Notes under the pieces: generated by a model
What the model was told of the DNA's origin: nothing
Database searches by the model: none
The model's input: the letters and a program-made list of their open reading frames with translations, nothing else
Shown here: piece by piece, positions 53,709 to 54,041 of the stretch
How the letters are laid out: every line of letters begins with the position of its first letter
Position numbering within the stretch: the first letter of the stretch is position 1
Assembly: GCA_902801825.1 (NCBI GenBank)
Contig: CADCJS010000001.1
Span: 40,872-104,871 of the forward strand
DNA length: 64,000 bases
From: an uncultured Erysipelotrichaceae bacterium
GTDB lineage: Bacteria > Bacillota_I > Bacilli_A > RF39 > UBA660
Direction: 5' to 3'
Made by a program: the position numbers and the translations under genes

Positions 53709-53737
53709 TTGATAAAAAATTAATTTTATGATATAGT
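53709..53737 (+). promoter_or_regulatory. Sigma-A promoter of the candidate antitoxin sRNA
   Basis: TTGATA, 17 nt, TATAGT, with extended -10 TGa. Confidence 0.6.
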
Positions 53738-53743
53738 GTATAC

Positions 53744-53853
53744 AGATGGAGGAAACTTCATATAATAAAAAAAGGATACGTTTGATTGCTCGAATCAGAC
53801 GTAATCCCTTGGGATAGCATCTGAAATCAACTAAGTTGAAATCAGATGTTTTT
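53744..53853 (+). ncRNA. Candidate antisense sRNA (type I antitoxin), about 110 nt
   Basis: It runs from the predicted TSS after the promoter to an intrinsic terminator: a 14-bp stem at 53818-53831/53835-53848 with 2 internal mismatches, then T5. It is antisense to the 3' UTR of the minus-strand peptide mRNA. Confidence 0.5.
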
Positions 53854-53858
53854 AATTT

Positions 53859-53948
53859 CTATCTAAAAAATAAAATATACATAAGTATAAATATCATAAT
53901 AAATAGAAGGAGTATAATGAAAAATAGAGATTTTTCTCTTTTAGTCAC
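53859..53948 (-). CDS. Candidate type I toxin, a 29-aa hydrophobic membrane peptide
   Basis: Sequence MTKREKSLFFIILLLFIMIFILMYILFFR, from my manual translation of the minus strand. GTG start 7 nt after GGAGG (SD GGGAGGTGG), TAG stop at 53861-53859. It has its own consensus promoter and terminator. It is too short for the supplied ORF track. Confidence 0.55.
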   Translation of the reverse strand: MTKREKSLFFIILLLFIMIFILMYILFFR

Positions 53949-54012
53949 AATACCACCTCCCTTCTTTGTTGAAGGGAAAACATCTGATATGTTTCAAACG
54001 TATCCGAAATAT

Positions 54013-54041
54013 ATTATAGCAAACAAATGTTTTATAATCAA
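54013..54041 (-). promoter_or_regulatory. Sigma-A promoter of the candidate toxin mRNA
   Basis: On the minus strand: TTGATT, 17 nt, TATAAT, with extended -10 TGc. The predicted TSS is at about 54005-54006. Confidence 0.6.

Follow-up and report, generated by a model that had tools for sequence, protein, structure and literature searches.

A candidate type I toxin-antitoxin cassette of an undescribed family in uncultured gut Bacilli, with a toxin mRNA whose 5′ end copies part of its antitoxin RNA

We analysed a 64-kb stretch of DNA from an uncultured Erysipelotrichaceae bacterium (hereafter the window, meaning the whole stretch of 64,000 nucleotides (nt)) and found that a cassette of about 340 base pairs (bp) at positions 53709-54041 is very likely a real and selected RNA and peptide module. 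Two transcription units face each other in this cassette, as a preliminary description of the DNA had proposed: convergent promoters would give rise to a minus-strand messenger RNA (mRNA) with a hydrophobic open reading frame (ORF) and to a plus-strand antisense small RNA (sRNA). We consider it probable, at roughly 0.75, that the locus is a chromosomal type I toxin-antitoxin (TA) cassette of an undescribed family which works in the way set out below. Beyond the preliminary description, we identified that the 5′ end of the mRNA duplicates part of the sRNA and pairs with its own 3′ end, and that the cassette belongs to a very large family with several toxin classes. The window is chromosomal, as indicated by its ribosomal protein genes, L10 leader and transfer-messenger RNA (tmRNA).

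The window DNA has a GC content of 24%. Promoter-like sites occur in it at chance level (29 found, 28 expected from shuffles) and ORFs rich in F, I and L are common throughout. Since hexamers and hydrophobic ORFs arise so easily at this base composition, the case for the cassette rests on conservation. All elements of the preliminary description were located within a few bases of where it had put them. The features are as follows, in window positions; SD is the Shine-Dalgarno sequence, UTR an untranslated region, and H1 to H3 are the hairpins of the sRNA.

54041-54013, minus strand: toxin mRNA promoter, with -35 TTGATT (54041-54036), a 17-nt spacer and extended -10 TGcTATAAT (54021-54013); score 10/12 plus TG.
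53766-54006, minus strand: predicted toxin mRNA of about 241 nt, from a transcription start site near 54006 to the U-run.
53980-54005, minus strand: mRNA 5′ segment that copies the sRNA and is the 5′ arm of the helix, made of GGAUACGUUUGA (54005-53994) and AUCAGAUGU (53988-53980).
53953-53976, minus strand: hairpin sequestering the ribosome-binding site, from the mRNA fold, with anti-SD CCCUUC (53976-53971), a 6-nt loop and GAAGGG in the SD segment GAAGGGAGGUGG (53964-53953).
53961-53953, minus strand: SD GGGAGGTGG.
53859-53948, minus strand: toxin ORF, with a GTG start at 53948, 29 codons (MTKREKSLFFIILLLFIMIFILMYILFFR) and a TAG stop at 53861-53859.
53818-53848, minus strand: first 3′-UTR hairpin of the mRNA, the complement of sRNA H3 (inverted repeat I11 and mRNA fold).
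53767-53807, minus strand: toxin terminator, a hairpin (53807-53774) plus U7 (53773-53767), from fold and covariation.
53709-53737, plus strand: antitoxin sRNA promoter, with -35 TTGATA (53709-53714), a 17-nt spacer and extended -10 TGaTATAGT (53729-53737); score 10/12 plus TG.
53744 to about 53856, plus strand: predicted antitoxin sRNA of about 113 nt, made of H1, an A-rich linker, H2, H3 and U5.
53746-53761, plus strand: sRNA H1, a 5′ hairpin with a GAAA loop.
53774-53807, plus strand: sRNA H2.
53818-53853, plus strand: sRNA H3, the terminator hairpin (53818-53848), followed by U5 (53849-53853).
53766-53856: perfect complementarity of the two RNAs, about 91 bp.
53738-53771, plus strand: family signature GTATAcAGATGgaGgaaaCttCATAtAATAAAAA, 34 nt, covering the transcription start region, H1 and the A-run.
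53664-53698, plus strand: left copy of a direct repeat of about 35 nt that brackets the cassette.
54054-54089, plus strand: right copy of that repeat.

Both promoters thus agree with their first description in hexamers, spacing and extended -10 boxes, and the SD, GTG start, 29-codon ORF and TAG stop were all found again on the minus strand. The encoded 29-residue (aa) peptide has a basic N-terminus followed by a hydrophobic stretch of about 22 residues. The sRNA had been given a length of about 110 nt and the terminator hairpin now predicted for it, and its complementarity to the mRNA, first put at roughly 53766-53853, is confirmed with a slightly later end. For the minus-strand terminator, the hairpin stood as described but the proposed T8 did not, as seven U were counted. 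The terminator region (53767-53807) is at the same time the 3′ arm of the 5′-3′ helix and the complement of sRNA H2.

One line of evidence comes from the 5′-3′ helix of the toxin mRNA, studied across a family of 207 unique complete modules whose collection is described below. In the window, GGAUACGUUUGA and AUCAGAUGU pair with UCAAACGUAUCC and ACGUCUGAU in the terminator region (inverted repeats I2 and I18, and the minimum free energy (MFE) structure), forming a long-distance helix that closes the mRNA fold. Because these 5′ segments are complementary to the terminator region, they are identical to parts of the plus-strand sRNA, which means that the mRNA carries a partial copy of its own antitoxin at the 5′ end. 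Cognate duplexes of 5′ UTR and 3′ UTR had a mean energy of -35.3 kcal/mol, compared with -22.5 for non-cognate and -17.6 for shuffled ones (Mann-Whitney p ~1e-71). RNAalifold on an alignment of 50 diverse modules (A2) gave two helices with 22 pairs, 21 of which carried compensatory double changes. By a separate pair counter, 90.7% of the helix cells were paired, against 35-43% when the partners were slid, and 277 cells held double changes against 28-45; neither value was reached by any of 500 shuffles. The helix was also present in the MFE structure of 57 out of 60 full-length family mRNAs. A -10 box matching at least five of six positions was present in 127 modules, and in 110 of them it ended 6-7 nt before the first nucleotide of the helix, indicating that the helix begins at or beside +1. 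Moreover, many helix pairs are G-U on the mRNA strand, which indicates that selection acts on the minus-strand RNA. Taken together, these results show that the 5′-3′ helix is under selection.

RNA folding pointed to a start site that is buried separately from this helix. The toxin mRNA of the window folded at -82.8 kcal/mol (z = -10.97; none of 200 shuffles folded as well) and the sRNA at -37.0 kcal/mol (z = -6.5). Besides the pairing of the SD with its anti-SD, the start region is buried in the mRNA fold by GGUGGUAUUGUG, which pairs with codons 9-13. In close homologues the stem of the SD hairpin is invariant and its loop variable. Among 60 sampled full-length family mRNAs, which had a median z-score of -8.1, pairing in the MFE structures reached 85% for the SD core and 80% for the start codon. 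The window SD and start are predicted by RNAcofold to remain paired in the monomer, in the dimer and in 3′-truncated forms. The RNAcofold check that had been suggested for the two RNAs gave a continuous 91-bp duplex, with a ddG of -83 kcal/mol relative to the separately folded RNAs; in this predicted duplex the mRNA 5′ segment is set free.

We then consider conservation within the species and its close relatives. Ten metagenome contigs carried the neighbouring DUF6512 gene, and eight of them were aligned with the window across the cassette. In all nine sequences the toxin ORF was identical, and only 7 variable sites were found in 53709-54041, compared with about 35 in the next 280 nt of intergenic DNA. 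Divergent copies were first found by using the 45-aa antisense ORF as a query in place of the cassette DNA. These copies lie after a lactamase_B gene beside rplQ (L012 and L013), after rpsI of another species (L014), and between a glycosyltransferase gene and a 646-aa gene (L015), so the cassette moves as a unit. In these other contexts the peptide shows the conservative substitutions K6N, M18I and R29K together with synonymous nucleotide changes. Next to the copy in L012 lies a divergent paralogue with the same layout and a different peptide (28 aa by direct reading, or the 27-aa MFKKDLLIFSLIILIFLLVLLLFIVLI by ORF script), and its 5′ and 3′ arms are wholly different yet complementary. L014 holds one full copy and a 5′-truncated tandem toxin copy with its own sRNA gene (3690-3880). 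Within the window, blastn and tblastn searches for paralogues over the 64 kb returned low-complexity noise, so that the cassette is single-copy there, and the signature motif occurred once even with 3 mismatches allowed (0 expected).

The region common to the window cassette and the L012 paralogue is the sRNA start together with H1 (GTATANAGATGNNGNNNNCNNCATANAATAAAAA), and it was used as the scan motif. Scanning with this 34-nt motif returned at least 120 loci in metagenome contigs and at least 120 in a one-genome-per-species collection. No match was found in IMG/VR viral contigs, and blastn found none among PLSDB plasmids and INPHARED phages. The hosts are metagenome-assembled genomes (MAGs) of uncultured AT-rich Bacilli, "Tenericutes" and "Erysipelotrichaceae RUG", among them Candidatus Coprosoma, Ca. 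Ventrenecus and Mycoplasma sp. CAG:611, and their sources are the guts of humans, mice, rabbits, chickens and ruminants. Among the matches listed, three to five or more copies per genome occur in several MAGs, and tandem copies were found in 18 loci at a spacing of 330-382 nt. The species of the window itself is absent among the representative genomes listed, the nearest being RUG12915 with 77% identity over rplM-rpsI. The geometry set out in the preliminary description was recovered in about 200 related modules with an sRNA overlapping only the 3′ UTR.

The copies in many contexts raise the question of whether the cassette could be a non-autonomous mobile repeat, similar to a miniature inverted-repeat transposable element or a repetitive extragenic palindrome, with incidental RNA features. 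The direct repeats of about 35 nt flanking the window cassette fit such a repeat, being 80% identical (repeat D1) or, by a second comparison, 86% identical over 37 nt, and the same repeats flank the L014 cassette. So does the location of the window cassette in an insert of 1.8 kb with a copy of the rpsI 3′ end on either side. However, the inverted repeats are internal rather than terminal, the G-U pairs are strand-specific and the covariation is that of RNA helices, and promoters, SD, ORF and terminators are conserved at fixed distances. In addition, the copies examined had no transposase or integrase beside them, and the phage, plasmid and IMG/VR collections gave no matches. We therefore give this explanation very little credence; recombination could also move a TA cassette, and mobility of this kind is no substitute for the TA reading.

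A hydrophobic ORF preceded by an SD lies opposite the motif in 160 of the 207 modules, mostly 24-34 aa long, and these ORFs encode 136 distinct peptides. Their start codons are ATG in 133, GTG in 13, TTG in 8 and ATA, ATT or CTG in 6; two modules (L181 and L186) have ATA as their sole in-frame start, which we note, together with the truncated L014 copy and the further peptide class described below, as a sign of turnover. The peptides have a common design, with an M-x-[KR]-[KR]-[DE]-like head, then a hydrophobic helix some 20 residues long and, in many cases, a K or KK tail. At least four classes can be told apart: MTKREK..., M[SN]KKDFLI..., MKKRxFIIKVLRYI...VIKK and MNSKEIILLYFLKI.... A further class with a charged C-terminal tail, for example MERIFVEYLVILVVILVLIEKSINSKNRK, was seen in L173 and L244, where the ORF filter had missed it. 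Nucleotide differences at the three codon positions numbered 7166, 4347 and 9293, so that the second position is the least variable, and from the seventh codon onward it is a T in 76% of the codons. Judged from these sequence patterns, the minus-strand ORF is a gene. In a collection of 15 billion proteins, nine of ten representative peptides were absent, and the tenth was listed as a 'hypothetical protein' on more than 900 contigs.

Several observations on individual family members stand apart from this analysis. The assembly collection lists the class-C toxin MKIKTFIIKVLKLIAIILLLSTLLVLAIKK (L256-L261, gene 3001-3093) in 1229 blocks, on contigs of up to 1.37 Mb, and the sample and record names point to the human gut; the toxin gene lies between an addA-like helicase gene and strain-variable small genes that precede an addB-like (PDDEXK_1) gene. 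One member (L016, 3951-4515) lies beside an OLE RNA (358 bits) in a contig of gut or rumen Bacilli. Others adjoin transfer RNA (tRNA) genes (L028, L030 and L031) or a tmRNA (L040, 1-45); tRNA and tmRNA genes are classic insertion hot spots.

A peptide of this design could also be a harmless small membrane protein, a regulator or subunit like KdpF, MgtR or AcrZ, tuned by a cis-antisense RNA. The sole matches to profile hidden Markov models (HMMs) fall on transmembrane segments of small membrane proteins and lean in that direction, although they are weak and far below cut-off (potass_kdpF, E 0.09; small_MgtR, 0.13; phospholamban, 4.2), and the toxicity of the peptide is a prediction from analogy. 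Against this, the cassette has no constant gene neighbour (rpsI, rplQ, lactamase_B, glycosyltransferase and addA genes, or tRNA, tmRNA and OLE RNA), it is multi-copy and tandemly repeated within genomes, and its peptides have diversified fast into several classes. Translation is also heavily silenced, with non-ATG starts in 27 of 160 modules. A module that is multi-copy, diversifying, silenced and without a fixed neighbour fits a selfish or addictive toxin better than an accessory subunit, and we regard the membrane-protein explanation as unlikely.

The opposite strand had been noted to carry a probably spurious ORF, and this assessment proved right. Gene callers annotate the plus-strand ORF (45 aa, 53917-54054) in each sister contig. 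If it, or a 72-aa version starting from 53836, were the real gene and the rest regulatory, its prediction in every sister contig and the existence of a protein cluster would be accounted for. However, the ORF is 33, 45 or 63 aa long in close relatives, which differ within the loop of the SD hairpin, and its equivalent varies between 0 and 90 aa across the family, with 37 of 160 modules lacking it. Such an unstable and often absent frame indicates that the ORF is spurious. It also lacks a Pfam match and overlaps the conserved minus-strand promoter, 5′ UTR and start, and frame conservation with synonymous-biased substitutions was sought in distant homologues and not found. The preliminary description had named conservation of the plus-strand frame without the minus-strand frame as an outcome that would speak against it. 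The opposite was observed, as homologues keep the minus-strand frame and its 136 peptides, and the plus-strand frame is not conserved. We consider a plus-strand gene extremely improbable.

As for the antitoxin, a hairpin and U-run on the sRNA strand abut the toxin stop codon in 140 of the 160 modules, and the predicted sRNA has a median length of 113 nt. The sRNA promoter is kept in homologous loci (alignment A1). An alignment of 40 sRNA sequences recovered H1, H2 and H3, with compensatory changes in 15 of 21 pairs; H2 and H3 covary across the family, and H1 is nearly invariant and common to all toxin classes. H1 has a GNRA-type loop and is probably a stability element or a protein handle. Two further candidates on this strand were rejected. 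A trans contact of the par or SprA1 type is unlikely, since the sRNA 5′ domain pairs with the initiation region hardly better than shuffled sequences do (-9.9 against -8.7 kcal/mol, a negligible effect). A 23-aa and possibly leaderless ORF on the sRNA strand, from 53746, has its frame shifted between homologues by the length of the A-run.

H1 being the most conserved part of the cassette, the covariation of H2 and H3, and the orphan sRNA copies without an intact ORF (the second copy of L014, L042 and L087) might suggest that the plus-strand sRNA alone is the functional unit, as a trans-regulator or structured repeat, with the ORF and mRNA as by-products. However, most of the region with the ORF, SD and toxin promoter falls beyond the sRNA, and these elements are conserved in their own right. 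The substitutions also follow codon structure, and the G-U pairs of the mRNA are C-A mismatches on the opposite strand. Orphan antitoxins beside decayed toxins are moreover expected of TA systems. An sRNA-only function is thus highly unlikely in our view.

We propose the following mechanism for the type I TA cassette. The mRNA of about 241 nt would encode a 29-aa peptide with a single transmembrane helix, which may damage the membrane by analogy with type I toxins; toxicity is expected because the design of the peptide, its strong silencing and the occurrence of the cassette in multiple and tandem copies are type I hallmarks (PMC8594479). Folding places the SD and GTG in local helices, in keeping with a silent mRNA, and covariation shows that the mRNA 5′ end pairs over about 22-28 bp with its own terminator region and closes the molecule. 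This 5′-3′ lock would protect both ends from nucleases and keep the mRNA inert. Pairing of the sRNA would begin at the free 3′-UTR hairpin by loop-loop entry and then spread, displacing the mRNA 5′ end and forming a duplex of about 91 bp. RNase III would cleave this duplex, leaving both mRNA ends exposed and the mRNA to be degraded, as for txpA/RatA and bsrG/SR4. As the SD is predicted to be paired whether or not the sRNA is bound, decay of the mRNA is a likelier outcome than a direct block of translation.

A more speculative extension, which we find possible but doubtful, is that the mRNA 5′ end is a built-in antitoxin mimic that occupies the antitoxin target site in cis, giving a modular two-state toggle. 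The mRNA would then alternate between a self-locked, nuclease-resistant and silent state and an antitoxin-bound state that exposes both ends to decay, and the ratio of sRNA to mRNA would be read as competition for one site. The invariant H1 would serve as a common handle for a shared RNase or chaperone. If this were true, one antitoxin scaffold could be reused with at least four unrelated-looking toxin classes by swapping H2 and H3 together with the matching mRNA 5′ end, a modular design undescribed for type I systems.

Several points weigh against the interpretation as a TA cassette. All family hosts are uncultured, and transcripts, toxicity and rescue rest on prediction. Small hydrophobic ORFs and promoter-like hexamers easily arise in DNA of 24% GC. 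Under simple criteria, 47 of the 207 modules have no ORF; some of these are decayed, frameshifted or truncated, and others have different SD or start arrangements. In one contig of the same species (L006), H3 has uncompensated C/G transversions at the equivalents of window positions 53828 and 53845, and the sRNA -10 box has a substitution at the equivalent of 53736, which could reflect a decaying antitoxin or an assembly artefact. Segments for the covariation analysis were placed by RNAduplex anchoring and kept at energies of -27 kcal/mol or lower, which favours pairing, although such a bias cannot create covariation. Finally, as the family was collected via the H1 motif, the conservation of H1 is partly ascertainment. 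This is partly relieved by extra toxin-like ORFs that were not selected for the motif, nearly all of which carry H1 with three or fewer substitutions or with compensatory stem variants, three such copies having the compensatory stem GCAAG/CUUGC.

The surroundings of the cassette show further features. The rpsI 3′ end and its terminator are duplicated at 52395-52465 and 54150-54232, the second copy with a degenerate coding sequence, and these ends bracket the 1.8-kb insert, which contains the TA cassette together with a split gene and a conserved element. The cargo of the insert is strain-variable, a BLIP-domain gene being present instead in L002, and the region behind rpsI looks like an insertion or cassette site. 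In sister contigs L003-L006 one gene of 366 aa takes the place of the two adjacent ORFs at 52560-52886 (108 aa) and 52945-53670 (241 aa); the sole family match is a weak one to alpha/beta-hydrolases, and the gene appears disrupted in the window strain and in L007. The conserved element, of about 120 nt, lies beside the toxin promoter (54054-54170), has the invariant core TTATGyAGGCGACACGTAGGCTACAAA, is kept in other species (L014, L147 and L188), and may be a recombination site. Its GC-rich part (54100-54170) was considered as a riboswitch or sRNA and rejected, with z-scores of -0.8 and -1.2 and no Rfam match. A palindromic motif, GTAGGCTAC, occurs twice just after rpsI (also 52500-52525). At 54268-54321, a 27-nt inverted repeat (I1; 89% complementary, no spacer) covers the -10 region, SD and start codon of the DUF6512 membrane-protein gene (54321-54881), and it could be an operator or a translation-blocking hairpin.

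With this cassette, a large and diverse family comes into view that had gone wholly unannotated in uncultured AT-rich Bacilli from the guts of humans, ruminants, rabbits and chickens. The range of type I TA systems has been thought narrow, largely because they are hard to find by homology (PMC12390103; in part PMC5367252), and gene callers now place a spurious ORF on the wrong strand at these loci. The 34-nt H1 motif offers a simple probe to annotate them in MAGs. About 100 natural variants of the 5′-3′ mRNA lock with its antitoxin-shared target form a covariation set for toxin mRNA silencing, and the modules are potential orthogonal RNA and peptide pairs for counter-selection or containment in low-GC Bacillota.

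We then compared the cassette with known type I systems. It has a small (<60 aa) hydrophobic ORF with its own promoter and SD, and an antisense RNA gene complementary to the mRNA with its own promoter and terminator, all as predicted signals. Among the main structural determinants of type I toxin mRNAs are SD/anti-SD pairing, long-distance 5′-3′ interactions and 3′ terminator stem-loops (PMC8594479), and here both the SD/anti-SD pairing and the 5′-3′ interaction that would prevent premature translation are predicted. Tandem repeats and hydrophobicity are the traits by which Fozo et al. sought new type I candidates (PMC2887945, as cited in PMC8594479). Ten representative peptides matched no type I toxin model of Pfam or NCBIfam at E<=10, nor the Fst/Ldr profile, and Rfam returned no antitoxin family for the locus (E<=10) or for 20 related loci (E<=0.1). 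The literature searched for the family, its peptides and type I systems in these lineages held nothing relevant. The peptide had been described as unlike Fst, TxpA, BsrG/E and Hok, and the HMM and Rfam searches agree with this. The family likewise remains unrecognised, as had been proposed, within Rfam, Pfam, NCBIfam, the plasmid and phage collections and the literature searched.

Gram-positive type I families have 3′-overlapping antisense RNAs (PMC8594479), and the closest in design are txpA/RatA, bsrG/SR4, bsrE/SR5 and yonT/SR6 of Bacillus subtilis. These share with the cassette convergent transcription, an SD buried in a helix, a small single-helix membrane peptide as toxin and the expected RNase III cleavage of a long duplex (PMC8594479; in part PMC3531473). 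However, neither the toxins (HMM) nor the RNAs (Rfam) are related. Presumably, the charge and hydrophobic arrangement of TxpA and BsrG is also the reverse of that in the cassette peptide, which has a charged N-terminus and is hydrophobic to the end. The preliminary description had likened the geometry to txpA/RatA, bsrG/SR4 and the enterococcal par locus, and the 3′-end overlap is as it proposed, but the bsrG-type overlap into the ORF is not seen. In the TxpA and BsrG families the overlap covers part of the ORF (PMC8594479), whereas here the sRNA stops at or just inside the stop codon: the window U-run ends at about 53853-53856 with the stop codon at 53859-53861, and the classes ending in KK overlap only by the last codons. 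Unlike the B. subtilis systems, the cassette also has an mRNA whose 5′ end duplicates antitoxin sequence and folds back onto the site that the antitoxin targets.

Fst/RNAII (par of pAD1) and SprA1/SprA1as are likewise Gram-positive systems with convergent RNAs whose overlap excludes the ORF (PMC8594479), with toxins of about 30 aa and with repeats common to both RNAs. In those systems the repeats make the antitoxin complementary to the initiation region, a contact outside the overlap (PMC8594479), whereas the common sequence of the cassette is identical in the two RNAs rather than complementary and pairs within the mRNA. In the Gram-negative systems hok/Sok and aapA1/IsoA1 a 5′-3′ helix also closes the primary transcript and should hold it in a stable, untranslated form (PMC8594479; in part PMC6733600), and the cassette has a long-distance helix of this type, a resemblance in mechanism only between unrelated sequences. 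However, in hok/Sok and aapA1 the antisense RNA binds the 5′ region and the mRNA needs 3′ trimming before translation or antisense binding, whereas the antisense RNA of the cassette targets the 3′ arm of the fold-back itself. The SD of the cassette, in addition, stays paired even in 3′-truncated forms, and the hosts are unrelated. Altogether, the family is new, and its design is a variant of the 3′-overlapping type I TA systems.

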